This document shows positions 36,848 through 56,295 of a stretch of DNA of 64,000 bases, one piece after another. The stretch is from Acidobacteriota bacterium (GTDB lineage Bacteria > Acidobacteriota > Thermoanaerobaculia > Multivoradales > UBA5704), in NCBI GenBank assembly GCA_034666985.1, contig JAXDKS010000034.1, forward strand, positions 20,889-84,888. Reading direction: 5' to 3'. Under the pieces are notes generated by a model. That model was not told where the DNA came from. It searched no databases and saw only the letters and a list, made by a program, of their open reading frames with translations. Within the stretch, counting starts at the first letter, position 1, and the number at the start of each line of letters is the position of its first letter. Made by a program: the position numbers and the translations under genes.

Positions 36848-37609
36848 ATGGATTCCCGAGCCGGGGACCGCTTCCCCCTCACCCGCCGCTCTGTGGTGGA
36901 GGCCACCCGCGATGCCGACCCCGACGTGCGCCGCCAGGGTTGGGAGTCCCTCGTGGCGTCTTACTGGCGGCCGGTCTACAAAGTGCTCCGGGTGCGCTGG
37001 CGTCTCGACCGCGAGGACGCCGAGGACCTCACCCAGGAGTTCTTCGCCTCGGCCCTGGTCAAGGGGACCTTCGAGCGGTACGATCCCGGGAAAGCCCGGT
37101 TCCGGACGTATCTCCGCACCTGCCTGGACGGTTTCGCCGCCAACGAGCGCAAGGCCGCCCGGCGCCTCAAGCGGGGAGGCGGGCAGTCGTTCCTCTCCCT
37201 GGACTTCGCGGGAGCGGAGGAGGAGCTGCGACGCTACGGAGCCGGCGAGGAGCTCGACGTGGAGGAGTACTTCCATCGCGAATGGGTGCGCGCGCTCTTC
37301 GGCCTCGCGGTCGAGGACCTGCGGCGCTGGAGCGAGGCCACGGGAAAGGCGGTCCACTTCCACCTCTTCGAGCGCTACGACCTCGAAGGTCCGGACGCGC
37401 CCGAGCGCCCCACCTATGCCGAGCTCGCCGCGGAGACGGGCCTGCCCGCCACCCAGGTGACCAACTACCTGGCGGCGGTGCGGCGGGAGCTCCGTCGGCT
37501 CGTCCTGGAGCGTCTGCGGGAGCTCACCGGCTCGGAGCGGGAGTTTCGCGACGAGGCACGGCTGATCCTGGGGATTGACCCCGTAAAATCGCCAGGAGGG
37601 CCGAAATGA
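36848..37609 (+). CDS. ECF-type RNA polymerase sigma factor
   Basis: Region 2 DAEDLTQEFF; region 4 HTH YAELAAETGLPATQVTNYLAAVRRELRR. Its stop overlaps the downstream kinase start (ATGA). Confidence 0.8.
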   Translation: MDSRAGDRFPLTRRSVVEATRDADPDVRRQGWESLVASYWRPVYKVLRVRWRLDREDAEDLTQEFFASALVKGTFERYDPGKARFRTYLRTCLDGFAANERKAARRLKRGGGQSFLSLDFAGAEEELRRYGAGEELDVEEYFHREWVRALFGLAVEDLRRWSEATGKAVHFHLFERYDLEGPDAPERPTYAELAAETGLPATQVTNYLAAVRRELRRLVLERLRELTGSEREFRDEARLILGIDPVKSPGGPK

Positions 37610-38625
37610 ACGGGATCTCCGACGCCGCGCTCCATCACCTGCGCGAGGTGGCCGACGAGCCGGACCTCTCGGGCACGCCCTACGAGATCGTCGAGACTCT
37701 GGGCCGCGGCGGCATGGGCACCGTCTATCTCGCCCGCGACCTCCGCCTCGACCGCGAGGTGGCCCTGAAGGTCGTCCAGCTCCCCGAAGGTACGGGCGAT
37801 CTGGAGCGCCTGCTGCGCGAGGCCCGCGTCCTGGCCCGGCTGGAGCATCCCGGCATCGTGCCCGTCCACGACGCCGGCCTGCTGCCTTGCGGTCGGGCCT
37901 TCTACGCCATGAAACGCGTCCGTGGCCAACAGCTCGATGAATACGCCCGTGCCGCGCCTCTCCCCGAGCGCCTGCGCGCCTTCGAACGCATCTGCGAGGC
38001 CGTGGCCTTCGCCCACGCTCACGGCGTGATCCACCGTGACCTCAAGCCCGAGAACGTCATGGTGGGTCCCTTCGGCGAAGTGCTGGTGATGGACTGGGGG
38101 GTGGCGAAGGTGGCCCCTCACCTGGTTGGAGCGTTTTGCTGTTCTCCCTCTTCTCCCGGTGATGAGGGCCTTGGGCGGGGACGCTCTGCGGCAAAGTTAG
38201 CGCTTATGGGGGCCAGGGGTGAGGGTTCGGGTGGGGGAACCGAGGCCGGCACCATCCTCGGTACTCCCGGCTACATGCCCCCCGAGCAGGAGCGTGGCGA
38301 GGTGGATCGCATCGACGAGCGCGCGGACGTCTGGGCTCTCGGGGCCCTCCTCGGCTTCCTTCTGAAAGGGAAGGAGCCGCCGCCCCGGCCTCTGGAGGCC
38401 ATCCGCCGGCGGGCCATGGCCACGGAGCCGGCGCAGCGCTACCCGCAGGTCGAGGAGCTGGCGGCGGACCTCTCCCGCTACCTCGCCGGGCTGCGCGTGG
38501 ACGCCCACCAGGAGACCGTGCTGGAGCGGGCCGGCCGCTTCGTCCGCCGCTACCGCACGCCCATCCTCCTGATCCTGGCCTACCTCGTCATGCGGGTGCT
38601 GCTGATTTTTTTCCTGGATCGTTGA
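37606..38625 (+). CDS. Ser/Thr protein kinase cotranscribed with the ECF sigma factor; C-terminal TM
   Basis: GRGGMGTVYLA..ALKVV, HRDLKPENVMV, MDWGVAK, GTPGYMPPE. Confidence 0.8.
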   Translation: MNGISDAALHHLREVADEPDLSGTPYEIVETLGRGGMGTVYLARDLRLDREVALKVVQLPEGTGDLERLLREARVLARLEHPGIVPVHDAGLLPCGRAFYAMKRVRGQQLDEYARAAPLPERLRAFERICEAVAFAHAHGVIHRDLKPENVMVGPFGEVLVMDWGVAKVAPHLVGAFCCSPSSPGDEGLGRGRSAAKLALMGARGEGSGGGTEAGTILGTPGYMPPEQERGEVDRIDERADVWALGALLGFLLKGKEPPPRPLEAIRRRAMATEPAQRYPQVEELAADLSRYLAGLRVDAHQETVLERAGRFVRRYRTPILLILAYLVMRVLLIFFLDR

Positions 38626-39695: not shown

Positions 39696-42062
39696 CTACC
39701 GCGAGAACCCGGGATAGGGCACGACCTTGGCGTCCACTCCATCGGACGCGTGAAGGTCGGCCGCGGCCTGCGTCGCGTCCTGCTCGGAAGAGAAGGGTCC
39801 GAAGGCGACCGTGCAGACAGCGTGGCCGTTCTCCTCCCGGGGAAGGAGGAAGGCGCCCCGGCCGGAGAAACGGGCAAGCGCGCGAGCGGCGTCGATCCAG
39901 TCCTCGGAAGCGAACACCTGCACGATGGGAGAGCCCGCCGTCATCCGGGTCGGCGTTTCCCCGGCACGGGCCGCGTCGAGCCGGCAGGTTGCCGTGAGCC
40001 GCTGCCAGGTGGCGGGATCGATGATGGGGAAGGATGGGGTCGTCGGACTCGGGGTCGGCGTCGTGTCGAAGGAACCGGGGAACTGCGGGCCCGGGCTGCC
40101 GAGGGTCGGACCCGAGTCGGCGATGGGAGGACCCGGGCTGGCAATGTCCTGCGATCCCGTCGTGGCGACAGAGGCCGGCTCCGGCGCGGACCGCGAGCGG
40201 AGCAGGAACACCGAGAGACCGACTACCGCCACGGCGATCATGGCGGCCACGCCCATCCAATTCCCCCGGCGCTGGCCGGACCGGACCGGAGGCGGCGAGT
40301 GCGATCCAGGATAGGCGGCCGTACCAGCCGGCGGCGGAGGGGGCAAGGGCTGGGCCGCGGCCACGGCAGCAGGGAGCGGGGGACGAGGGGGAGCCACGGC
40401 CGTGGCGTCGCCGTCATCTTCATTGGCCTCGTCGCTCGGAGGCTGCGGAGCCGTGGGGAACGCGACGACCGTGGCGTTCAGATCGAAATCCCCCTTGCCT
40501 CCAGGCAGGAGCTGGAAATGGAGCCGCCGCAGCTCCTCGGGAGGCAGGCTCCGCGCCGGCTCCTCCGGCAACGGGTCCTGCCAGTAGGTGGGACGCACGA
40601 AGTTCGGACGGCCCAGGGAGATTGCGTACCGCCACTCCTCCTCGACGTAGGGCGAGCGCAGAGCGTTCCACGACCAGAAGAGCTGGAAGACGTCCGCCTT
40701 CTGGATCAGATCTTTCAGCCGGTCGTTCCATACCTCGCCCGCGCGCAACTCGTGGACGTCCCGCAGATAGCGGTCGCCGAGGGTGCGGGCATAGCGCTCG
40801 AATTCCTCGACGATGCCGGCGTCCCGATGGGAGTACGATGGGAAGATGTTGCGGAACGGCCGGCTCGCGACCCGCTCAGTCGGCACGGACGGAGGCGCCG
40901 GGCCGCTGGCGATCCGGGCATCGACCCGGATGGCGAGGCTGACCTCGGCCAGGATGATGCTCCCCCAGAACACGCTCATCCGGCCGCGGACGGCCGTGCC
41001 TGCGAGCTCCGGCCCGGCCCGGATCCGGAACTCCTCCCGATGCACGGACTCCAGCCACAGGAACGTCCGCCGGGGCGGATTGACCTCGAACCCCGGGATC
41101 TCCGGCACGAACGTGATCTCCGCCTCATGGGGGATGGCGTAGCGGCTGTCCTGCTTGACGTCCGCATACCCCTGAGCCATGTCGCCGAGGATCTTCCGGG
41201 CCTGCGCCCGCACTTCCTCGACCGGGTCCGGCTCATCCGCCGGAGCGTCTGGCGGCAGCTCCTCCAGATGGGCGAACGCCAGCAGCGGAAACCACTTCAA
41301 CGGCTCCACCGCCCGCGGGCGGTACACCGTGAACTGGACGTTCTCGTGAAGAGGGAGCGCCTTGTCGGGAGGAACGTGGGCCGGCGAAGGCTCGGGCGCC
41401 GGAGCCGACACCGGAGCGAGTAGGGGAGCCTCCCTGGCCAAACCCTGTTCCTGGATCGCCTTCCAAAGATCCTCCAGAACCCGCTCGGCAAAAGCATCCA
41501 ACCGAGCCGCCCGGCCGAGACCATCGCTCCAACCGCAGGAATAGCCGTCCAGGACCGGCCGTCCCGAAGCCCGGATGCGATCCTTCAGCTTGGTGAGGCG
41601 GGAAGCTGCCGCTTCATTCTCAGGAAGGAACCGTTCCCGCTGCGCCTCGGGAACCGACAAGGGGAACCGGCGGTCCCTGAAATAGAAGAAGCTCCGGGTC
41701 TTACCCGGCTCGCGAAGAGCCCCCTGAAGGATCTCGAGCTCCACCATGCTCCGGCCGGGGTCCTCCGCCAGCCAGGGCTGCGCCGCCACCAGAGCCAGAG
41801 GGACCGCCGCCGGAGGCTCGCCATACCGCTCCCCCAGCAGCCCCACGAAGATCTGGCACCCCTCGATCTCCCGGAACCGCCGCGCCAGGTCCCACTCCTC
41901 CCCCTTGACCTTGGCAGGATCGACGACGACGATCTCGATCCCCAGCCTCTGCGCCCGCTCCCGGAGCTCGGGCAGGACGAGGCCCTCGATGACGGCGCGT
42001 TCGCCGTCCATCTCCCCGGGGAGGGATGCGAGGTAGAGGCGGAGGGGAGAGGGAGGAGGCAT
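39696..42062 (-). CDS. Multidomain protein: N-terminal DUF4062-like domain, central TIR domain, single TM helix and C-terminal SPOR (peptidoglycan-binding) domain
   Basis: DUF4062-like LYLASLPGEMDGERAVIEGLVLPELRERAQRLGIEIVVVD..IFVGLLGERYG. TIR: IFPSYSHRDAGIVEEFERYARTLG...DVFQLFWSWNALRSPYVEEEWRYAI. TM: WMGVAAMIAVAVVGLSVFLL. SPOR: VQVFASEDWIDAARALARFSGRGAFLLP..AVCTVAFGPFSSEQDATQAAADL. Confidence 0.65.
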   Translation of the reverse strand: MPPPSPLRLYLASLPGEMDGERAVIEGLVLPELRERAQRLGIEIVVVDPAKVKGEEWDLARRFREIEGCQIFVGLLGERYGEPPAAVPLALVAAQPWLAEDPGRSMVELEILQGALREPGKTRSFFYFRDRRFPLSVPEAQRERFLPENEAAASRLTKLKDRIRASGRPVLDGYSCGWSDGLGRAARLDAFAERVLEDLWKAIQEQGLAREAPLLAPVSAPAPEPSPAHVPPDKALPLHENVQFTVYRPRAVEPLKWFPLLAFAHLEELPPDAPADEPDPVEEVRAQARKILGDMAQGYADVKQDSRYAIPHEAEITFVPEIPGFEVNPPRRTFLWLESVHREEFRIRAGPELAGTAVRGRMSVFWGSIILAEVSLAIRVDARIASGPAPPSVPTERVASRPFRNIFPSYSHRDAGIVEEFERYARTLGDRYLRDVHELRAGEVWNDRLKDLIQKADVFQLFWSWNALRSPYVEEEWRYAISLGRPNFVRPTYWQDPLPEEPARSLPPEELRRLHFQLLPGGKGDFDLNATVVAFPTAPQPPSDEANEDDGDATAVAPPRPPLPAAVAAAQPLPPPPPAGTAAYPGSHSPPPVRSGQRRGNWMGVAAMIAVAVVGLSVFLLRSRSAPEPASVATTGSQDIASPGPPIADSGPTLGSPGPQFPGSFDTTPTPSPTTPSFPIIDPATWQRLTATCRLDAARAGETPTRMTAGSPIVQVFASEDWIDAARALARFSGRGAFLLPREENGHAVCTVAFGPFSSEQDATQAAADLHASDGVDAKVVPYPGFSR

Positions 42063-42199
42063 GGCTATCCTTGATTTTATTCCAAGAAGGACGACCCGAA
42101 CACCATCCAGCCCGTGCTAGCATAGAGCTGGAGGGTGTTGCTTTCTGGCGGGCAAAATGCTTTGATGACGCGTCCCGTCGGGGAAAGGCAGACACGTGT

Positions 42200-42973
42200 A
42201 TGAGCGTCCTTCCGCTCGAACAGGAGATTGAATACCCCACCTCCGACGGCCAGCCCATGGCCGAGACCCCTCTTCATCGGAAGGTGATGAACGACCTCAT
42301 CGGGGGCTTGGAGGACCGTTACGCCCAGGAGCCAGACGTCTGGGCTGGAGGCAACCTCTTCCTTTGCTACGAGGAAGGCAACCCGGCGGCGTGCGTGGCC
42401 CCGGACGTGCTGCTGGCCAAGGGGGTGCCGAAGTGGGACCGGCCGAACTATCTCCTCTGGGAGGAAGTGCCGCCCAGCTTGGTGGTGGAGATCACGTCGA
42501 AGAAGACCCGGCGGGATGACCAGGGCAAGAAGAAGTCGCTCTACGAGCGGCTTGGCGTCGAGGAGCTGGTCCTGTTCGATCCCTACGGAGAGTACCTGCG
42601 GCCGCGGCTCCAGGGTTACCGGCTCGTCAAGGGGCATTATCAACCGGTCCCCCTGGAGCAGGACGGGGCATTCCTGAGCCAGACGACAGGCCTGCTCTTC
42701 CACCCTGAGGGGAAGCGATTACGGCTGGTGGATGCCGTCACCGGAGAGCGGTACCTGTGGCGCGAGGAGTCCGAAGCGGCCCGGAAGGCAGAAGCCGCCG
42801 CCCGTCGGGCCGCGCAGAGAAGAGCCGCCAAGGAGGCCGCCGCCCGCCAGGCTGCGGAGGCGAGAGCTGCGGAAGCGGAGGTGAAGGCCGCTGAAGAGGC
42901 GGCAGCTCGACAGGCCGCCGAAGAGCAGGTTCGGGCCTTGAAAGCGGAACTGGACCGGCTGCGGAAGGGCTGA
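42200..42973 (+). CDS. Uma2-family (DUF820) PD-(D/E)XK endonuclease with a Lys/Ala/Glu-rich coiled-coil tail
   Basis: EYPTSDGQPMAETPLH...APDVLL..G..E..PSLVVEITSKKTRRDD..KKSLYERLGVEELVLFDP is the Uma2 restriction-endonuclease-like core. Confidence 0.75.
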   Translation: MSVLPLEQEIEYPTSDGQPMAETPLHRKVMNDLIGGLEDRYAQEPDVWAGGNLFLCYEEGNPAACVAPDVLLAKGVPKWDRPNYLLWEEVPPSLVVEITSKKTRRDDQGKKKSLYERLGVEELVLFDPYGEYLRPRLQGYRLVKGHYQPVPLEQDGAFLSQTTGLLFHPEGKRLRLVDAVTGERYLWREESEAARKAEAAARRAAQRRAAKEAAARQAAEARAAEAEVKAAEEAAARQAAEEQVRALKAELDRLRKG

Positions 42974-42991
42974 CCCGCGCGCCGGAGCGGC

Positions 42992-44788
42992 CTAGGGAGG
43001 AGTCAGAGGCTTGGTGACGAACGCCGCACGCCAGTCAGCCTGCTCCAAGAGTTGGATTTGGCAAAAATACTCCGCCTGGGCGCCCAGTTCCTTGGAGGAC
43101 ATCGCCCTCTTGGAGCTCAACAAACTGGTCAGCAAAGCACTCAACCTCGCTCGCAAGGCTTTGGAGCGCCGGAAAATTCGCTCAAACTCGCCCTGATGGG
43201 AAATGCCTTCAACGGCGGCACCGACAGCCGGCAGGACGACCGCACAGAGGCTCAGCAGGAGGATTGCAGCGGCGGCGACAAATTTACCCAGCCGGGGATC
43301 TGCTTCTTCACCAAGCCACAGGTGAACAAGGCACGCCACTAGAGTGGCGGGGAAAAGCCATTTTACCACTAGCGAATGCAGACGATGGTGTGCGAGCTCC
43401 ATCCTCGCGGAGGTCTCCGCGTGGTACTTGACCTGCCCCTTCACCGCGTCCGCGAGCACTTGACGATAGGTTTCCAGGAAGGCTGCATCCATTCTTGAAG
43501 AAACCATCCCTAACTCACGAGCAATCGCTCGAAAGTACCAATTGAACCAAGTCCTGCCGGGATCTTCTTCGAGGTGTGCAGGGACTTCAAAGGCAGGAGT
43601 CACCCGAGCAAGGGGTATCAGGTACTGCATCTGCCTGAAGCCTTCGGCGAGAAGCCGATAATCGATCCATCGCTCATGGAGATGGAAGCGCTGGTTCCCC
43701 AGCCACACCAAGATCAATATGGCGGTGATCAACACCAGCTCAACCCAAAACGCATCGTGGTACCCTTCTTTGTAGATACCGAAGAAGGCTGAGAATACGG
43801 CAGCGGCGCCGAGCCCATAGGTTAGGATGAACAGACTGCGATAGATATCTCCATAAGTATTGGCGAGATCGTCTGCGCGCTTTAAATGAATCTGGCAGCC
43901 ATTAAGAAGCTTATGCCCTATACGGCTGTTGGGTTCCTCAAGGCTGGCCCAACGATCCTCCGCCGGCTGATCGCCACCGTTTAGGCCATTGTTGCCTGTC
44001 TCTTCGAGGCGCTTTTCCCAACCACGGGCGATGAAATTGCGGAACGTTTTGTAGATCGGTATCGGCTTGGGCTGCTTCTCCCCGAGAAATCGCTCCAGAG
44101 GCTTGGGACTGACGTCCGTTGGCATCTCGAAGATAGGTTTTAGACGATTCAAGAGATGGCCGAGATCCGTTTTTCTTGGGGGTTCCCCAGGATTCGTACC
44201 TCGTTCCAAGAGGCAGATCTCGTGCTCTGGACGGGAATTGATCCAGATGATTGGAATGCTTCGAGAGAGCGCTTCGGTGGCCACAGCCCCCGGATCCCCT
44301 TTTTCTCCCTGCTCGCCGTTCCACACAGCGATGAGTACATCGCACTGACGTAGAACGGCCTGTCCCACGGTCTCACGTGCTGCAGGCTTGTCATCCGAGG
44401 AACCATCCAACTCGACCTTTACCGAATCAAGACCCCAAAGATCATCGAAGATCTCATGCCATTCTGCGGTCAGGAACTTCTTCCTGTATTCCTCATGCGC
44501 TACGGATAAGAGGCACTGCAGCTCAAATTTCTGCTGAATGGCCTCACGCGTGACTACCAGTTCGGCTCCTTCTCCCAAAGGAGAGATGATGCGCATCGTC
44601 GGGTTCTCGCTTATGTATAATCCCTTGCAGGGACTACGGAGATCGCCGGCGCATTCACGGAGTTTTTTGAGAGCTTCTTGAATTTTTTTAATGAGGAGTT
44701 CATTGGATGTCTCGGAACGCAAATCGCAGCCCGTTACGCCGACGCGTACAACCAGTCGTGTTCCCGTCGATGGTCTTTTCTGTATCAT
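42992..44788 (-). CDS. SLOG-domain protein fused to a 4-TM (tandem 2TM, SLATT-like) membrane effector region
   Basis: N-terminal Rossmannoid SLOG-like domain (RVGVTGCDL...ISPLGEGAELVVTREA...CDVLIAVWNGEQGEKGDPGAVATEA), paralogous to the upstream gene. Two pairs of TM helices separated by a soluble helical segment. GC about 52%. Confidence 0.6.
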   Translation of the reverse strand: MIQKRPSTGTRLVVRVGVTGCDLRSETSNELLIKKIQEALKKLRECAGDLRSPCKGLYISENPTMRIISPLGEGAELVVTREAIQQKFELQCLLSVAHEEYRKKFLTAEWHEIFDDLWGLDSVKVELDGSSDDKPAARETVGQAVLRQCDVLIAVWNGEQGEKGDPGAVATEALSRSIPIIWINSRPEHEICLLERGTNPGEPPRKTDLGHLLNRLKPIFEMPTDVSPKPLERFLGEKQPKPIPIYKTFRNFIARGWEKRLEETGNNGLNGGDQPAEDRWASLEEPNSRIGHKLLNGCQIHLKRADDLANTYGDIYRSLFILTYGLGAAAVFSAFFGIYKEGYHDAFWVELVLITAILILVWLGNQRFHLHERWIDYRLLAEGFRQMQYLIPLARVTPAFEVPAHLEEDPGRTWFNWYFRAIARELGMVSSRMDAAFLETYRQVLADAVKGQVKYHAETSARMELAHHRLHSLVVKWLFPATLVACLVHLWLGEEADPRLGKFVAAAAILLLSLCAVVLPAVGAAVEGISHQGEFERIFRRSKALRARLSALLTSLLSSKRAMSSKELGAQAEYFCQIQLLEQADWRAAFVTKPLTPP

Positions 44789-44805
44789 TTATGTCCTCAT
44801 TTCGC

Positions 44806-45477
44806 TCAGCTCATGCCGCGCGCAGTCAAGACTCTTCCGATCGCTTCGGAGAGTCCGTTCATCGAATCGTATAAGAGAGGAGCAATCGACCTTAGTAGAA
44901 AAATCTCCTCGTGGGGTCGTACCCATACAGTAGTAATTCCTCGTGCGATGGCTTCTTTCACGATTTGCCCTGTACCACCCTGTCCTGCCGGAGATTGACC
45001 ATTCCATATAGCGATCAGGATGTCAGAGTGGAGAAGGACCCATCGACCCACCTCCTCGTAAGCTTTGTTTTCATGCTCGCGGGAACCCGCCAGCTCAATG
45101 ACTTGCGTGGTACGCTCTAACAGAGCATGAAACGCCGTCTTGGATTCTGGGATCGTGAAATCCTTCTCGTACTCCTGGCGTGAGAAAGGCAGCGGGCTCT
45201 GAAGCTCATAGCCAAGCATCAATCCTTCTTCAGCTACGATGCGATCGGCACCTTCGGCGAGAGGTGAGACGACTTTGAGGAGGAGCTCTTCTCTGACGTC
45301 TGGATGCCGTTCAGAGAGCCGACGAGCGATCTCCTTGACCTGGGCCAGGACTTTACGGACCGATCCTCTCAAAAGCGCCTGGTCGTATCCCGCTTCGGAT
45401 AAGCCTTTGGTCCGATGGCCGGTGACGCCGACTCGGAGTGTCGGCGGTGAGCCGAGTGGACTCTCCTGTGAGACCAT
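44806..45477 (-). CDS. Standalone SLOG-domain protein (LOG/YpsA-like Rossmannoid nucleotide-binding fold)
   Basis: LRVGVTGHR..VVSPLAEGADRIVAEE...HSDILIAIWNGQSPAGQGGTGQIVKEAIARGI; the GGTG motif is as in the LOG/SLOG PGGxGT motif. It is the first gene of an operon with the SLOG-SLATT gene. Confidence 0.6.
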   Translation of the reverse strand: MVSQESPLGSPPTLRVGVTGHRTKGLSEAGYDQALLRGSVRKVLAQVKEIARRLSERHPDVREELLLKVVSPLAEGADRIVAEEGLMLGYELQSPLPFSRQEYEKDFTIPESKTAFHALLERTTQVIELAGSREHENKAYEEVGRWVLLHSDILIAIWNGQSPAGQGGTGQIVKEAIARGITTVWVRPHEEIFLLRSIAPLLYDSMNGLSEAIGRVLTARGMS

Positions 45478-45658
45478 ATGCGAACCGATTATAAACTATT
45501 CGCCGCGGCCGGCTCGGGTTCGCCGGCGAACCTCTGACTCCTGGGCCACCCCTCCCGGCCTGATCCTTGCAGCCGCTCACCTCAGGGACCGAGCCGGGCC
45601 TCCGGTCCCTCCACTACCATCTCTGACGCAGTCGCCCGGCCCCAAGGAGGACCCTCCT

Positions 45659-45874
45659 ATGGCTGAGATCCGAGTCGAGAAGAAGAAAGGCGTCCCCGTC
45701 TGGGCGATCCTGCTTGCCCTGATCATCCTGGCTCTCATCGTCTGGGCCGTTTCCTCGCTGCGCAGTCGCGGTCGCCAGCAGGACGTCGACCATACGGCGG
45801 CCCTCGCGGGACTGACGCAGGTCATCGTCCTCGAAACCCGCGAGACCTTCGTCCCCACCGCCCGGTGCGCCTGA
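45659..45874 (+). CDS. Small single-TM hypothetical protein
   Basis: RBS CCAAGGAGGACCCTCCT ATG; PVWAILLALIILALIVWAV. Confidence 0.4.
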   Translation: MAEIRVEKKKGVPVWAILLALIILALIVWAVSSLRSRGRQQDVDHTAALAGLTQVIVLETRETFVPTARCA

Positions 45875-52171: not shown

Positions 52172-53335
52172 ATGCTACCTTTGCCTGAGATCGGAAGGCG
52201 CATTAGAACCCTCCGTGAGGAGTTGGATATCCCGCGGGCCGACCTCGCTGCGGCGTGCGGCGTCGCGGAAGCCGTTATTGAGCAGCTTGAAGCCGGTCGG
52301 CTAGAGCAGGTGCCCGGGGACTACATACTCATCGTTGCCCGTCTCCTTAAGGTAGACTTCCGCTGGTTCATCTCCGAAGATCTCGATGGGATTGAACAGG
52401 GGACTAGGAGGATTTTTAGGGCTCTCTCTCAGGGTACTTCACGGGATCGTGTTGCTATAAGGCGCTTCGTTGGCTTCTGTTTAAACGAAAGCGAGCTTGA
52501 GAAGCTACTCGGTATCCACAGAATTTCTTTGCCTGTGGTTTATCCCGCGCCCGAATCGAGGCGACAGCTCTATAAGGAGCAGGGTCCGGCAGCCGCGCGG
52601 GCAGAGCGGGTTAGGCTGAATCTAGGCCTTAAGCCGATCTTTAATGTGTTCTCCATAATAAGATCCCAAGGATTGAGACTGAGCCGGCAGAAGCTCGACA
52701 GCAAGGAAATCTCTGGTTTAACTGTCTTTCATCCCCGCGCGGGAACGGCGATCCTTGTGAACTACGAAGAGGATATGTATCGGCAGTTCTTCTCTGCTGC
52801 CCACGAATACGCTCATGCTCTCTTTGATGGGCGAGAGTTGGAGGAAAAGAGAGTCCTAGTCTCCTACAAGAAGGTCTATGATTGGACCGAGATTCGCGCG
52901 AACACCTTTGCCGCTGAATTTCTGCTACCGCAAGAAGCGCTTGCCCAGTATGCGCGGCCTCGAGACCTTTCGTCGCTAACAGCCATCATTGACCAGATTG
53001 CCCGAGATTACCGCGTTAACACTGAGACTGTTGCTATTCGCGCCAAAGAGGTTGGCTGGATTTCTGATAAGACGCTGAGTTCGTTTAGAGAAAAGAAACC
53101 AATTGTGATTCCGAGGGCAGATAAGCAAGATCCTGAGCTATCAGATGATCTGACTTCCCTGCAGGTCGAACGCTGGAAAGCACTGATCGCACAGGGCGTC
53201 AGCGTTTATTATGCGGAGCTATGCCGCCGTGCTCTTACAAGTGACCTTATAACTTTCGGGAGATTTGCGGAATTGCTGGATCTCACTCCAGAAGAGGCTT
53301 CTGAATTCATCCAGATGGCAGGGCTGGCTTTATGA
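52172..53335 (+). CDS. XRE-type HTH regulator fused to an ImmA/IrrE-family (DUF955) metallopeptidase domain
   Basis: N-terminal HTH (IGRRIRTLREELDIPRADLAAACGVAEAVIEQLEAGR). HEXXH in AAHEYAHALF. GC about 50%. Confidence 0.75.
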   Translation: MLPLPEIGRRIRTLREELDIPRADLAAACGVAEAVIEQLEAGRLEQVPGDYILIVARLLKVDFRWFISEDLDGIEQGTRRIFRALSQGTSRDRVAIRRFVGFCLNESELEKLLGIHRISLPVVYPAPESRRQLYKEQGPAAARAERVRLNLGLKPIFNVFSIIRSQGLRLSRQKLDSKEISGLTVFHPRAGTAILVNYEEDMYRQFFSAAHEYAHALFDGRELEEKRVLVSYKKVYDWTEIRANTFAAEFLLPQEALAQYARPRDLSSLTAIIDQIARDYRVNTETVAIRAKEVGWISDKTLSSFREKKPIVIPRADKQDPELSDDLTSLQVERWKALIAQGVSVYYAELCRRALTSDLITFGRFAELLDLTPEEASEFIQMAGLAL

Positions 53336-53871
53336 GAGTGATCGGTGCTGTCAGCGGTTGGATGCTGGACAGCTCGACTTTCATAAACGCTCTCGTCGTG
53401 AAGAAGGTGTGGATATTGTCGGCAATTCGAACGCCGCTGTTCCTTCCGGAGTACGTATTCCGAATCGAGCTCGGCACAGGGGCGCGGCGAGAGACTCGCC
53501 ACGAGGCTCAGGCCTTGGTTTCACGAGGCCAAGCCTGCATCGAACATCTTACACTCGGGGATCTCGATCGGATTGCCGAACTATGCGCGCCGAAGCGTAT
53601 AGGCATTGGTGAGATTTGCTGCGCGGTCATCGCTGAACGATCTGATCGCGGCGTGCTTTGCGACGATTACAAGGCGCATCGGTGGCTTTGTGAGCGTGTC
53701 GGAGTGGCGGAGTGGGAGTCGATCGAGGAAATCCTAGTGGCTGGGGGAATCGCGAACTACCTTAGCGAATATGACGTCGAAGATTGCCAAGGGCTTCTTA
53801 CGAAGAATAGATACAGATGCAAGTATGATCTTCGCCTAGAGCTCTTACGGTGTCGAAATTCACCTGAGTAA
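53332..53871 (+). CDS. DUF4411-like PIN-fold protein, translationally coupled to the ImmA/IrrE gene
   Basis: ATGA overlap; N-terminal MLDSSTFINAL and later acidic clusters (..IGIGEICCAVIAERSDRGVLCDDYKA) are consistent with the PIN-like DUF4411 that typically follows DUF955 genes. Confidence 0.5.
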   Translation: MRVIGAVSGWMLDSSTFINALVVKKVWILSAIRTPLFLPEYVFRIELGTGARRETRHEAQALVSRGQACIEHLTLGDLDRIAELCAPKRIGIGEICCAVIAERSDRGVLCDDYKAHRWLCERVGVAEWESIEEILVAGGIANYLSEYDVEDCQGLLTKNRYRCKYDLRLELLRCRNSPE

Positions 53872-53877
53872 CGTGGC

Positions 53878-54225
53878 TCAGAGAGGAAGAAACTCCACCC
53901 GATCCGAGAAGTCGGCCGGATCTGCTACTTGGGCGATCAACTCCAGATCACGGACACAGTCCCCGATCGTGACATGGAGTTGATGAGCGAAGATGACTCC
54001 GGGAAAGGAGCGGCCTTCGGTCTGTCGTTTTCTGGCTTCGGCCAGCAGGTCCTCGTCCTGCGAGAAGAGCACCCTTCCAAGTGCGGCAGCCCGGTCCAGC
54101 ACTGCGGGATCGTCTATTCCGGACCGACCATCCTCCTGGACGGCAAGGACATCGATTCCTCGGAGACGCAGTCCACTGGTGATGGCCCGATGGACGTTTT
54201 CGTCCATGTAGAGGATGAGTCCCAA
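53878..54225 (-). CDS. DUF5615-family PIN-like toxin
   Basis: ILYMDENVHRAITSGLRLRGIDVLAVQEDG..DDPAVLDRAAALGRVLFSQDEDL. Confidence 0.7.
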   Translation of the reverse strand: MGLILYMDENVHRAITSGLRLRGIDVLAVQEDGRSGIDDPAVLDRAAALGRVLFSQDEDLLAEARKRQTEGRSFPGVIFAHQLHVTIGDCVRDLELIAQVADPADFSDRVEFLPL

Positions 54226-54228
54226 GTC

Positions 54229-54555
54229 TCAGTCCGCTCGATTTTGACTGCGGACCTTGGCGGCCAAGAGGGAAGGCCCGGCCTCGCGCCGGGCGGCTTC
54301 GGCGTACTGGGACCTGCGGTCGATGTCCGCGTCAAGCTCCTCTTGGTGATCCCAGTAGTAGGCCAGCGCGGAGTGGATCTGCCCCAAGCTCAGATCGGGG
54401 TGCTGGAAGTGGATCTCCTCCGGGCTCCAGCCGTGGGCTCTTTGTCCCATGACGAGCTCGACGACCTTCATCGTGGTTCCGGAAATGATGGGGTTCCCTC
54501 TGTCATCGTGTTCCACGTGAGGGTAGGTGGCGGGGGCTCTGAGTGGTGCGCTCAT
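54229..54555 (-). CDS. DUF433-family antitoxin partner of DUF5615
   Basis: ..GNPIISGTTMKVVELVMGQRAHGWSPEEIHFQHPDLSLGQIHSALAYYWDH. Confidence 0.7.
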   Translation of the reverse strand: MSAPLRAPATYPHVEHDDRGNPIISGTTMKVVELVMGQRAHGWSPEEIHFQHPDLSLGQIHSALAYYWDHQEELDADIDRRSQYAEAARREAGPSLLAAKVRSQNRAD

Positions 54556-54587
54556 GCTTGGTCTCCTAAGTGAAGTCTAACCCAAAA

Positions 54588-54684
54588 TCTGCACCCGGCC
54601 GTAGAGATCGCGCAGCAGTCCGAGCCGCCCGACTTGATGGAGATAGAGAAGTGGCGAGGTGTTGCAGACGACCAGCCGGTCAGG
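54588..54684 (-). pseudogene. Truncated DUF3368 PIN-like toxin remnant (36 codons) downstream of a UPF0175 antitoxin
   Basis: MPDRLVVCNTSPLLYLHQVGRLGLLRDLYGRVQILG-stop matches only the N-terminal beta1-alpha1 of DUF3368 (compare IVVNTGPLVSFARIGCLDV at 16483). Its ATG overlaps the antitoxin stop. Confidence 0.45.
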
Positions 54685-54931
54685 CATTGAGGATGTCTTG
54701 GCGCAGCTCCTCCTCCGTTATCTGGAAGGGGGAAACCTGGAAGCGCCGCAGCCCCAGCAGGAACTCGACCCGCGCCATCCCGGCCAGTCTCGCAGCTCCT
54801 CCCGAGGACAGCTTCCCGAGCTCGAACAGCTTCACGGCAGCCAACAGCTTGAGATCCCGAGCGAAGGACTCGGCGTCGGTCTTGAGGCTGATCAGCGTCT
54901 CCTCGGGGATGTCCAACTGCACTGCGCTCAT
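54680..54931 (-). CDS. UPF0175-family antitoxin (orphaned by toxin truncation)
   Basis: Start MSAVQL after GGAGAG; LKLLAAVKLFELGKLSSGGAARLAGMARVEFLLGL. Confidence 0.65.
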   Translation of the reverse strand: MSAVQLDIPEETLISLKTDAESFARDLKLLAAVKLFELGKLSSGGAARLAGMARVEFLLGLRRFQVSPFQITEEELRQDILNA

Positions 54932-55161
54932 CGTGCTCTCCTCGTCCAGAAGTTTAGCCCAAAATCCTTCGGTGTAGTCCGTTTCAATCTCCGGAGACCT
55001 GTCCACCTCCCTCGTCCACTGGAGATGAGATGCCAGAGACCTCCGGGCTGGGCGGGCCGTGGAGCAAGGATGAAATCGGGACGGTTCGGCGGGTTGCTCA
55101 TCGTCTGGCCTGCTGGAGTAGGTACTGATGGCCCGGGGATTGTAGCCCGGACGGGGAGACG

Positions 55162-56295
55162 TCAGCCCTCGCTCTGGAGGAACGAGGACGCCTTGTTCTC
55201 AAGCAGAAGCCGCTGCTCGCGATCCAGCTCGGTCCGCAGCTCTTCCTCAGACGGCAGCACCAGCCGGTATTTGCTGGCAAAAAGTCGCTCGCTGCCGTGC
55301 AGGATGGAGTACCGCACCACGGAAGCGTCCCTCTGGGCACAGAGGATGATGCCGACGGTTGGATTGTCTCCCGGGCCGCGCCGCTGCTCGTCGTACATGC
55401 GGATGTACATGTCCATCTGACCGATGTCCTGATGGGTCAGCTCGCCTGCCTTGAGCTCGAAGAGCACGAAGCACTTGAGGAGATAGTTGTAGAAGACGAG
55501 GTCCAGATAGAAGTCCTTCGACTCCGTGCTGACGCGCTGCTGCCGGGCGACGAAGGCAAAGCCCTTGCCGAGCTCCAGCAGGAAGGCCTGGAGCTTCTCG
55601 AGCAACGCCTCCTCCAGCGTGGACTCCAGCAGCTTGCCTGTATTCGGCAGCCCCAGGAACTCCAGCACCACGGGATCACGGACGAAATCGCGCGGGGATT
55701 GCACCAGCGCTTCCAGCCTCTGGACAGCCTCTTCACGCACGGACCGCCGCTCCTTGCTGGTGAGGAGGCGCTCGTAATACAACGTCCCAATCTGGCGTTC
55801 CAGAGCGCGAGAGCTCCAGTTTTGTCCGGCAGCTTCCCGCATATACCACTGTCTAACTTGAGGGTCCTCGACCCGCAGCAGAAGCCGGTAATGGGTCCAG
55901 CTCAATTCGGAACGCACTGCGTTCCAAATCGGGAAGCCCAGAAAGAAGGCTCGCATGTGGCGCAGGTTCCGTTCGTCAAACCCCCTGCCGAACTCCGCCG
56001 TCAGCCTCTCCGCCAAGCGGGACAGCAGCTTCGTGCCGTACTGGGCGCGGCTTGCTCCCCTCTGCTCGAACTCCACGATGTGCCGTCCCACCTCCCAGTG
56101 GGTCCGCACCTGAACCGCGTCCACCGCACGCAAGGCCTGCTGGCGGGCCTTATGAATCAGAGTCCGCAACTGCCCGAGCAGCCGGCCGAAGGCGGGTGGA
56201 GCTGCCAGCGTCAAGGTCGCTTTTCTGGCGCCCTTCTTCGTAACGAGCTTCTCACGCCGTTGCGGGAGAGGACGTTTCCTGGGGCTTGGTGGCAC
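55162..56295 (-). CDS. YhcG-family (DUF1016) PD-(D/E)XK nuclease
   Basis: N-terminal DUF1016 helical region (..HWEVGRHIVEFEQRGASRAQYGTKLLSRLAERL..FGRGFDERNLRHMRAFF); C-terminal PDDEXK (..FYLDLVFYNYLLKCFVLFELKAGELTHQDIGQMDMY). Confidence 0.75.
   Translation of the reverse strand: MPPSPRKRPLPQRREKLVTKKGARKATLTLAAPPAFGRLLGQLRTLIHKARQQALRAVDAVQVRTHWEVGRHIVEFEQRGASRAQYGTKLLSRLAERLTAEFGRGFDERNLRHMRAFFLGFPIWNAVRSELSWTHYRLLLRVEDPQVRQWYMREAAGQNWSSRALERQIGTLYYERLLTSKERRSVREEAVQRLEALVQSPRDFVRDPVVLEFLGLPNTGKLLESTLEEALLEKLQAFLLELGKGFAFVARQQRVSTESKDFYLDLVFYNYLLKCFVLFELKAGELTHQDIGQMDMYIRMYDEQRRGPGDNPTVGIILCAQRDASVVRYSILHGSERLFASKYRLVLPSEEELRTELDREQRLLLENKASSFLQSEG

Follow-up and report, generated by a model that had tools for sequence, protein, structure and literature searches.

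The network of SLOG and SLATT domain proteins was reportedly predicted by Burroughs, Zhang, Schaffer, Iyer & Aravind in 2015. SLATT domains, named for their association with SMODS and SLOG, are predicted to form nucleotide-gated pores. Among the systems closest to the locus described here are type I Thoeris, with its SIR2-SLOG effector ThsA, the SLOG domain of which binds 3'cADPR, and type III Thoeris, in which multiple TIR proteins accompany a SLOG effector. Type VII Thoeris combines the TIR protein ThsB with the SLATT effector ThsH, which is thought to oligomerise upon ligand binding, and its signal is canonical cADPR. An untyped candidate Thoeris effector class has been named 'SLOG and 4TM', with representatives in Ca. 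Nitrospira nitrosa COMA1 and Streptomyces sp. GKU 895; two of its systems conferred no defence when tried in E. coli MG1655 (Yirmiya et al. 2025, bioRxiv 10.64898/2025.12.03.692087). This last class, in which a TIR gene adjoins one for a protein that begins with a SLOG domain and has four transmembrane (TM) helices, is the closest known kind to our locus, the likeness being one of description and of TIR profile.

The window, a stretch of 64,000 nucleotides from an Acidobacteriota bacterium, contains three genes on the minus strand that resemble a predicted type of anti-phage system, a three-part one in which an NAD-derived signal triggers cell suicide. With a probability that we put at roughly 60%, the three proteins make up a Thoeris-type system in which a TIR enzyme is coupled to a membrane effector, here in a 'split sensor' form. 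The first gene (44806..45477) encodes a standalone SLOG protein of 223 aa with all family-invariant motifs present. It is followed after 17 nt by a fused SLOG-SLATT gene (42992..44788) of 598 aa, encoding a partly degenerate SLOG domain and then two SLATT 2TM domains, with a Shine-Dalgarno-like GAGGA motif ahead of its ATG. NCBI's public model of this second gene (P0001) is 534 aa long and omits the first strand; homologues support the predicted full length of 598 aa. A promoter scan returned no sigma-70 promoters at the locus, and terminator-like sites occurred there at chance level only; a TATAAT hexamer lies at 45488-45493.

Base composition sets the pair apart. The GC contents of the standalone and fused genes are 0.552 and 0.546 and their GC3 values 0.57 and 0.61, against 0.65-0.70 and 0.79-0.90, respectively, in every neighbouring gene. 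The dip is coextensive with the two genes, which bears out the low-GC patch reported in a preliminary description of this DNA. That description had also stated that no cyclase or SMODS gene adjoins the pair, and we found none within ±10 kb or in related loci. We rejected a CBASS system with a SLATT/4TM effector on the same ground, its CD-NTase/SMODS cyclase being found neither in the 20-kb neighbourhood nor in related loci.

The two SLOG copies are not equivalent sensors, one being intact and the other degenerate, and this contrast proved more informative than any other feature of the locus. The SLOG domain of the fused protein (aa 13-220; 44129..44752, minus strand) is a paralogue of the standalone protein (34% identity over 201 aa, E = 9e-28), as the preliminary description had held. 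It had further given both copies a (V/I)TGHR strand and a GGTG motif, and here the two diverge. The standalone protein carries G17-V-T-G-H21-R22, S71-P-L-A-E75-G76-A-D78-R and G167-G-T169 (GVTGHR, SPLAEGADR and GGT(G) in the shorthand of the family motifs). At the same positions the fused copy, which has lost most of these motifs, reads GVTGCD, SPLGEGAEL and KGDPGAV; its His-Arg dyad and GGT loop are gone and its GxD/E motif remains, as GxE. On these residues, the standalone SLOG is the proposed ligand-binding subunit.

Both copies superpose on known SLOG members with a Rossmannoid alpha/beta fold. YpsA was the best structural match, and when the whole fused model was compared with the PDB in Foldseek, the sole match above noise was to ShosA, at the N-domain. 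As in the YpsA family, both copies bear the GxD/E signature, G76-A-D78 in the standalone protein, where it is invariant or nearly so across the family, and G-A-E in the fused one; this substrate-binding signature of the YpsA-like clade, which follows the second strand, is defined in Brzozowski et al. 2019 (PMC6459960). At the GGT loop the family consensus, GxGGTxQIVxEA, lacks a Glu at T+3, and neither the window proteins nor the family members matched Lysine_decarbox. Curated SLOG-clan models from Pfam, NCBIfam and PADLOC gave no match above threshold for either window protein, PADLOC having a model for neither, and searches of PDB sequences with both proteins and with profile A1 returned no match. 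Sub-threshold matches to SLOG-clan Pfam models were found within the family, to YAcAr (9/43), DNA_processg_A (8/43), cpYpsA (2) and YpsA (1). The SLOG clade to which these proteins belong is unannotated by Pfam, NCBIfam and PADLOC, and it comprises more than 12,000 cluster representatives.

The split between an intact and a degenerate copy recurs among relatives. In six loci with a small and a fused gene, it is the fused copy that is degenerate and the small one that is intact; nine others have two full-length paralogues, an intact one downstream and a degenerate or truncated one upstream. Whenever two paralogues occur together, one of them is intact and the other degenerate, a pattern that we regard as new. 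Single-copy fused genes, the majority form of the family, have an intact SLOG domain. Six natural Rosetta-stone fusions join SLOG, SLOG and SLATT in one protein, with the polarity of the standalone and fused gene pair; their first SLOG is intact in all six, and the second is degenerate in three and partly so in a fourth. The standalone SLOG is 49-55% identical to the intact fused N-domains of other lineages, against 34% to its own partner. Another effector, Patatin, is paired with the same SLOG family either in trans or in cis. The complementarity of intact and degenerate copies, the tight operon coupling and the natural SLOG-SLOG-SLATT fusions together argue for a pseudo-heterodimeric sensor.

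The SAVED domain of CBASS effectors is a fusion of two CARF-like halves. By analogy, the SLOG pair may be a duplicated nucleotide-sensor fold whose non-equivalent halves act together as a pseudo-dimer to control an effector. Unlike SAVED, the fold here is SLOG rather than CARF, and the halves occur, according to lineage, as separate genes, as full-length paralogues or fused.

Hydropathy analysis of the fused protein placed four hydrophobic helices in a 2+2 arrangement (aa 318-339, 343-366, 470-492 and 498-530), in agreement with the two 2TM units described previously. The first two helices fall in a DUF4231-type SLATT unit (aa 287-393; 43610..43930, minus strand) and the other two in a SLATT_1/SLATT_4-type unit (aa 435-590; 43019..43486, minus strand). 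In the window protein the first unit scored below cutoff with both Pfam DUF4231 (E = 1.3e-4; 22.8 vs 24.7 bits) and NCBIfam SLATT_1 (E = 5e-6; 26.5 vs 41 bits), and the second unit had no direct match to a SLATT model. Among family members, 41 of 46 matched DUF4231, 15 matched SLATT_1 and four matched SLATT_4. The region equivalent to the second unit exceeded the SLATT_1 gathering cutoff in P0033, P0065, P0070 and P0052, and both units were above cutoff in the first three of these. The SLATT identity that the preliminary description had assigned to the four-helix part is therefore supported at the level of the family, by the DUF4231 matches and the separate SLATT_1/SLATT_4 match on the second unit. 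The context is also that of SLATT domains, two 2TM hairpins fused to SLOG and beside a TIR gene. Internal duplication of a single 2TM unit was rejected, the halves having no similarity in hhalign and matching different SLATT subfamilies.

The third gene (39696..42062) encodes a TIR protein of 788 aa with a layout of DUF4062, a region without assignment, TIR, TM and SPOR; its start at 42062 is supported by a conserved N-terminal 'LRLYL'. The DUF4062 segment (aa 33-83; 41814..41966, minus strand) scored below cutoff (E = 3e-4; 21.4 vs 24.7 bits), and the domain was above cutoff (31.2 bits) in the L030 protein of orthologous architecture. Homologues of DUF4062 are NADases by experiment and act as NAD+-hydrolysing executioners (bioRxiv 10.64898/2026.05.01.722283). 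The TIR domain (aa 391-550; 40413..40892, minus strand; TIR_2 E = 5e-13) keeps its catalytic Glu (SPYVEEEW), a residue that is invariant in the alignment with ThsB-type TIRs. Beyond it lie a single hydropathy-defined TM helix (aa 600-626; 40185..40265, minus strand) and a SPOR domain (aa 712-781; 39720..39929, minus strand; 25.0 bits against a Pfam cutoff of 21), which would sit across the membrane from the TIR domain. The architecture is repeated in L002, L003, L009 and L014, with SPOR in L002, L003 and L009, and five related TIR proteins share a conserved SPOR domain. In a further clade a TM helix and then two DUF4189 domains come after the TIR. Partner TIR proteins overall carry variable domains (SPOR, DUF4189, STAND, WD40), and some partner proteins are SIR2_2-TIR fusions. 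A TIR partner in the form of a predicted DUF4062-TIR-TM-SPOR membrane protein appears to be new.

Of 79 independent loci, 30 have an adjacent TIR gene and 44 have one within 7 kb; an ad hoc TIR profile found none within 7 kb in the other 35. In every close relative, and on a plasmid from Caballeronia, a TIR gene directly follows the fused gene, and a downstream TIR gene also occurs in Dadabacteria/Thermodesulfobacteriota, Terriglobia and Aromatoleum. In L002 and L003 the small, fused and TIR genes form operons in which genes overlap or are 7 nt apart. Partners in loci without a TIR gene include DUF4062-NACHT, nSTAND1 and NAD-binding TrkA_N/RyR proteins, and the associates of the fused family as a whole are TIR proteins, STAND NTPases (nSTAND1, NACHT, AAA_35), WD40/TPR proteins and Patatin. 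These counts support the TIR gene as a partner, one of two neighbours singled out in the preliminary description, which had also suggested profiling its co-occurrence.

The other neighbour, a Uma2-family gene (42200..42973, plus strand; Pfam Uma2 E = 3.6e-19), belongs to a lineage-specific insertion of 944 bp (42048..42991, plus strand) flanked by a 12-nt direct repeat (42050-42061 and 42994-43005). The insertion is present in L009 and absent from L002 and L003, and Uma2 is single-copy in the window; we therefore rejected it as a component of the system. In this window the insertion uncouples the TIR gene from the standalone-fused operon. A TIR gene directly follows the fused gene in relatives across many phyla, and the TIR link is therefore syntenic and Uma2 incidental. 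No obvious defence island was seen at the locus; the nearest toxin-antitoxin genes are 7-10 kb away, and the TIR gene sits in conserved housekeeping synteny.

The history of the TIR gene and that of the effector genes differ. The TIR gene is 84% identical, like its flanks, in conserved chromosomal synteny, whereas the effector cassette is hypervariable, horizontally replaced and patchy in its taxonomic spread. The effector cassettes of four lineages are 41-75% identical and all still low in GC3. The comparison shows horizontal exchange of the low-GC two-gene cassette, separate from the vertically inherited TIR gene. Recent transfer followed by amelioration is insufficient by itself to explain the GC dip, since low GC3 is found in four lineages with cassettes so diverged; repeated exchange, or selection, would be needed. 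The scan found no relatives in viral contigs, so the link to mobile elements consists of one plasmid only.

A profile of the TIRs neighbouring this family scored 'SLOG and 4TM' TIRs at 44 bits and SLOG-linked TIRs at 44-52 bits; TIRs of types I and VII reached 13-16 bits. The single-gene form of our family, an intact SLOG with 4TM and a TIR gene downstream, fits the 'SLOG and 4TM' description. The window locus departs from it in the split sensor, with an intact standalone and a degenerate fused SLOG, and in its large DUF4062-TIR-TM-SPOR partner. A query with the Ca. Nitrospira nitrosa TIR recovered only TIRs of 55-64% identity, on short contigs, one of which (5 kb) ended before the neighbouring gene. 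As in type VII Thoeris, a TIR enzyme is paired with a SLATT membrane effector. ThsH, however, is annotated as SLATT only and its pockets are modelled between SLATT protomers, whereas here a dedicated SLOG pair precedes two SLATT units; membership of type VII was rejected because the TIR subgroup differs and the effector carries SLOG. As in Thoeris-type systems generally, a TIR with a catalytic Glu is encoded next to an effector, with the Uma2 insertion between them in the window.

We propose the following sequence of events. The 788-aa TIR protein would reside in the inner membrane with both of its NAD+-cleaving domains, which are recognisable in its sequence, on the cytoplasmic side. Upon a trigger, it would turn NAD+ into an ADP-ribose-derived signal. 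The standalone SLOG, which alone has the invariant pocket residues, would bind this signal, and together with the decayed SLOG at the N-terminus of the fused protein it would make up a pseudo-heterodimeric sensor. By analogy with SLATT effectors found in CBASS and in type VII Thoeris, the ligand may then reorganise or oligomerise the two SLATT 2TM domains, so that they breach the inner membrane and the infected cell stops growing or dies. The ligand, the pore and the abortive outcome of infection are inferred. A bolder version, which we hold only tentatively and consider doubtful, is an envelope-surveillance Thoeris-like system: the DUF4062 and TIR enzyme would read peptidoglycan via a periplasmic SPOR domain (or DUF4189 in the other clade), an NAD-derived messenger would act on a live/dead SLOG heteromer that gates a tandem-SLATT pore, and the enzyme would be inherited vertically while the low-GC effector pair is swapped between lineages.

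Signal flow might instead be reversed or parallel, with the DUF4062-TIR protein as an NAD+-depleting executioner and the SLOG-SLATT pair as a second effector or as its sensor or regulator. The TIR protein does carry two NADase-type domains, some partners are SIR2_2-TIR fusions typical of NAD depletion, the homologues of DUF4062 are executioners (bioRxiv 10.64898/2026.05.01.722283), and the TIR may be the effector in candidate types that are unverified, according to Yirmiya et al. (bioRxiv 10.64898/2025.12.03.692087). We nevertheless consider this arrangement unlikely: every SLATT studied so far is a membrane effector, SLOG is the ligand sensor in ThsA, the 'sensor-like' SPOR, DUF4189, STAND and WD40 domains of partner TIRs are as expected of an input component, and the profile places these TIRs together with the SLOG-linked Thoeris TIRs. 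The associates of the family (TIR, STAND NTPases, WD40/TPR, Patatin) are hallmarks of conflict systems, and this, with the hypervariable, horizontally replaced and patchily distributed cassette, makes a function outside immunity decidedly unlikely. Such an envelope or cell-division module, in which a septum-targeted (SPOR) TIR signals the state of peptidoglycan to a YpsA-like regulator and a membrane channel, would suit the conserved SPOR domains, the TM helix and two DUF4189 domains of the other clade, and a TIR gene inherited vertically with its flanks. It would also fit the inhibition of cell division by YpsA in Bacillus (PMC6459960), the lack of a defence island and the look-alike 'SLOG and 4TM' class without defence in E. 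coli.

The strict conservation of H21, R22, E75, D78 and the GGT loop would also suit catalysis. LOG-clade SLOGs are N-glycosidases, a role in degrading cADPR-type signals has been proposed for YpsA-like SLOGs of viruses, and pseudoenzyme receptors are common; the intact SLOG could then be an enzyme (e.g. an N-glycosidase) that processes or destroys the nucleotide signal, the small protein being an off-switch or antitoxin and the dead fused SLOG the true receptor. This is improbable, in our view, given that the LOG catalytic motif PGGxGTxxE is absent and that the Rosetta-stone fusions keep an intact SLOG covalently on the pore protein, an odd place for an antagonist. Moreover, the single fused SLOG is intact and alone in most genomes, so there it must at least sense the signal. 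Ordinary metabolism, that is, an active LOG-type phosphoribohydrolase beside a transporter fragment, is scarcely credible and is refuted as far as sequence and fold can do so: PGGxGTxxE is missing and the fold is not that of a transporter. A LOG enzyme with that complete motif and a transporter fragment were the two outcomes that the preliminary description had named as contrary to its reading, and by motif and fold neither was found.

Several predicted Thoeris types have no demonstrated signal or mechanism, and TIR-made nucleotide signals are an immune language common to bacteria, plants and animals. The split-sensor reading suggests why single-gene 'SLOG + 4TM' constructs may fail, since in some lineages the receptor would be a pair of SLOG domains of which one is the pocket subunit; the natural fusions and split forms define the functional unit of this class. 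Even if the system proves ordinary, it brings to light this SLOG clade, so far without annotation, and its more than 12,000 cluster representatives. Modular evolution is cleanly exemplified by an effector cassette that is replaced beside a conserved sensor. TIRs tethered to the membrane with extracytoplasmic SPOR or DUF4189 domains hint at envelope sensing, and if that reading is true, some TIR sensors would watch the cell envelope rather than the cytoplasm.

The small gene (44806..45477, minus strand, 223 aa), which encodes a standalone YpsA-like SLOG protein, and the fused gene (42992..44788, minus strand, 598 aa) were both present as same-strand open reading frames, as the preliminary description had proposed. 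They lie 17 nt apart, with GAGGA 5 nt ahead of the second ATG, in an Acidobacteriota MAG that is Thermoanaerobaculia-like. The lower-GC patch was likewise borne out: GC was 0.51-0.56 exactly across the two genes against 0.63-0.72 in their surroundings, and GC3 was 0.57 in the small gene and 0.61 in the fused gene against 0.79-0.90 in every neighbouring gene, including 0.84 in the adjacent TIR gene. Over their N-terminal 200 residues the two products were paralogous, as described (34% identity, E=9e-28). GVTGHR and GGTG had been ascribed to both copies; the small protein carries them, whereas the fused copy reads GVTGCD, SPLGEGAEL and KGDPGAV. The feature is real, and its first interpretation was largely correct.

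The N-terminus is cut short in two public gene models, and both errors would conceal domain features from automated annotation. The NCBI model of the fused gene (534 aa) is missing the first SLOG strand, and homologues align from residue 1; in the JGI model of the TIR protein (771 aa), the DUF4062 domain lacks its first strand, the conserved 'LRLYL'. Within an AT-rich patch, aatagtttataat, a perfect TATAAT (45488-45493, minus strand) stands 10 nt upstream of the small-gene ATG; the promoter scan was silent on it because there is no -35 match. No Shine-Dalgarno motif was found between this TATAAT and the ATG, so the transcript might be leaderless.

Hydropathy and an AF2 model agreed on four TM helices in the fused protein, in the 2+2 layout that had been described as two 2TM units. 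Its DUF4231 and SLATT_1 matches both fell below cutoff. DUF4231 was matched in 41 of 46 family members, and in several of these proteins the first 2TM unit matched DUF4231 and the second SLATT_1 or SLATT_4, each above gathering cutoff; the description as SLOG plus tandem SLATT thus holds. Similarity between the two units was not detectable, and a PDB search gave no likeness to the helical module, whose ABC-transporter matches were noise.

We aligned every SLOG copy from 88 loci to the family HMM. The pattern was consistent. Single-copy fused genes kept GVTGHR, SPLAEGAD and GGT. In loci with a standalone SLOG ahead of the fused gene (the window, L001, and relatives' loci L002-4, L009 and L010), it is the fused copy that has degenerated, the standalone one being intact; in loci with two full-length paralogues side by side (L005, 6, 13, 16, 17, 20-22 and 29), the upstream copy has degenerated and the downstream one is intact. 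The small protein is 49-55% identical to intact fused N-domains elsewhere, against 34% to its own partner. An exhaustive profile search yielded 12,389 cluster representatives of the SLOG family, six of which (723-836 aa) are SLOG-SLOG-tandem-SLATT fusions. The first SLOG is intact in 6/6; the second is degenerate in three (P0265, P0313 and P0357) and partially degenerate in P0247, the same order as in the gene pair. These Rosetta-stone fusions argue that the small and fused products would work as one unit. The family is also fused to, or neighbours, Patatin, in agreement with the 'SLOG Patatin' candidates of Yirmiya et al. (bioRxiv 10.64898/2025.12.03.692087). One large ATPase-containing protein (P0248, 1187 aa) ends in a C-terminal tandem SLOG pair without TM helices, and in P0364 (618 aa) Patatin is fused to SLOG; judging by these architectures, the SLOG pair seems to serve several effectors as a portable sensor module.

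The TIR gene (39696..42062, minus strand) encodes 788 aa comprising a DUF4062 segment, a TIR_2 domain with its catalytic Glu kept, one TM helix and a SPOR domain. This layout recurs in L002, L003, L009 and L014; another clade has TIR, TM and then two DUF4189 domains. Our literature search found no paper naming both a TIR and a SPOR domain. Just past the gene (36848-38625, plus strand), an ECF-like Sigma70_r2 gene and the gene for a Ser/Thr protein kinase with a TM helix at its C-terminus overlap each other, possibly forming a sigma/regulator pair; the sigma gene likewise adjoins the TIR gene in L003.

The link of the TIR gene to the small and fused genes is syntenic. L002 and L003, from related Thermoanaerobaculaceae, have small gene, fused gene and a gene for a TIR protein of about 800 aa in that order, overlapping or 7 nt apart. 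Dadabacteria and Thermodesulfobacteriota have a full-length paralogue, the fused gene and a TIR protein of about 450 aa; Terriglobia have the fused gene, SIR2_2-TIR and nSTAND1-TPR; and Caballeronia plasmid pSBC2-4 has a DUF4231 protein, a TIR protein and a WD40 protein. When one genome per species was scanned, relatives turned up in at least 519 genomes across many phyla. With an ad hoc TIR profile, a TIR ORF lay within 400 bp in 30 of 79 independent loci, within 1.2 kb in a further three and 2-7 kb away in 11. The conserved order and this proximity uphold the TIR protein as the partner suggested earlier. TIR-less loci often have DUF4062-NACHT-TPR, nSTAND1 or TrkA_N(+RyR) proteins instead, and DUF4062 was recently demonstrated to be a TIR-like NADase (bioRxiv 10.64898/2026.05.01.722283). 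In four TIR-less loci (L024:5105-6904, L042:8834-10867, L035:8793-9917 and L094:3303-8463, the last with an additional DUF4062-STAND-WD40 giant), SLOG-SLATT or a standalone SLOG adjoins TrkA_N (NAD-binding) and RyR proteins. The RyR domains are curious beside a likely ADPR-type sensor, since animal ryanodine receptors are gated by cADPR.

A Uma2 nuclease had been noted immediately alongside. Its gene (42200-42973, plus strand) sits in a 944-bp insertion (42048-42991) between the fused-gene stop and the TIR-gene start. The window and L002 share 85-90% nucleotide similarity as far as 45549 and again from 42047, and the segment, single-copy in the window, is missing from L002 and common to the window and L009, the closest relative. 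An 11/12-nt direct repeat, AGGGAGGAG[G/T]CA, flanks it (42050-42061 and 42994-43005), its copies covering the fused-gene end and the TIR-gene start; the same insertion in L009 has a shorter CCTCCCT match at its flanks. Either a target-site duplication or microhomology could account for the repeat, and the segment would then have inserted as a unit. Uma2 is not part of the TIR link.

Five flanking proteins, including TIR, are 84-92% identical between the window and L002, whereas the small protein is 58% and the fused protein 49% identical. Against L009 the TIR protein is more distant (66%), yet the fused protein is closer (75%). Low GC3 is common to the cassettes of the window (42992-45477), L002 (7327-9806), L003 (7325-9737) and L009 (6986-9464), but not to their TIR genes: it was 0.49-0.61 in four lineages with a genome GC3 of about 0.8. 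Such values in cassettes diverged to 41-75% protein identity are at odds with simple amelioration after one old transfer. Together, the identity contrast and the cassette-only low GC3 indicate that the two-gene cassette was replaced or exchanged separately from the TIR gene.

Outside the swapped cassette, inside the flank conserved between genomes, a 71-aa ORF (45659-45874, plus strand) with one TM helix and no Pfam match diverges from the small gene; its counterparts have 71 aa in L002 and 73 aa in L003. At 52172-55478 (L001:1-3306), 7-10 kb off the operon, lies a cluster typical of mobile/defence neighbourhoods: a YhcG/DUF1016 nuclease, toxin-antitoxin-like pairs (UPF0175 with a truncated DUF3368, DUF433 with DUF5615) and HTH_3-Peptidase_M78 (ImmA/IrrE-like). 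A UPF0175/DUF3368 pair is immediately upstream of the small SLOG gene in L002.

A Thoeris-type pathway is the most likely reading. Past domain identity, synteny, motif pattern and fusions, we infer its steps: the TIR protein, whether or not its DUF4062 domain takes part, would make an ADPR-derived signal; the intact SLOG, paired with the decayed one, would receive it; and the tandem SLATT domains would then permeabilise the membrane. Alternatively, the TIR protein may serve in NAD depletion, the intact SLOG may be an enzyme, or the genes may have a non-immune envelope or division role, which SPOR and YpsA suggest. The Thoeris-type pathway has working parallels in type VII Thoeris (TIR and SLATT, cADPR) and in types I and III (SLOG receptors), but all differ in architecture. 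The closest published kind is the untyped 'SLOG and 4TM' candidate class, which gave no defence in E. coli (Yirmiya et al. 2025, bioRxiv 10.64898/2025.12.03.692087); its effectors are likened by their published description, and its TIRs share a profile subgroup with those of the present loci. The present locus is a variant of a predicted, unverified kind, with a split or pseudo-dimeric sensor, a membrane-anchored TIR-SPOR partner and a swapped cassette.
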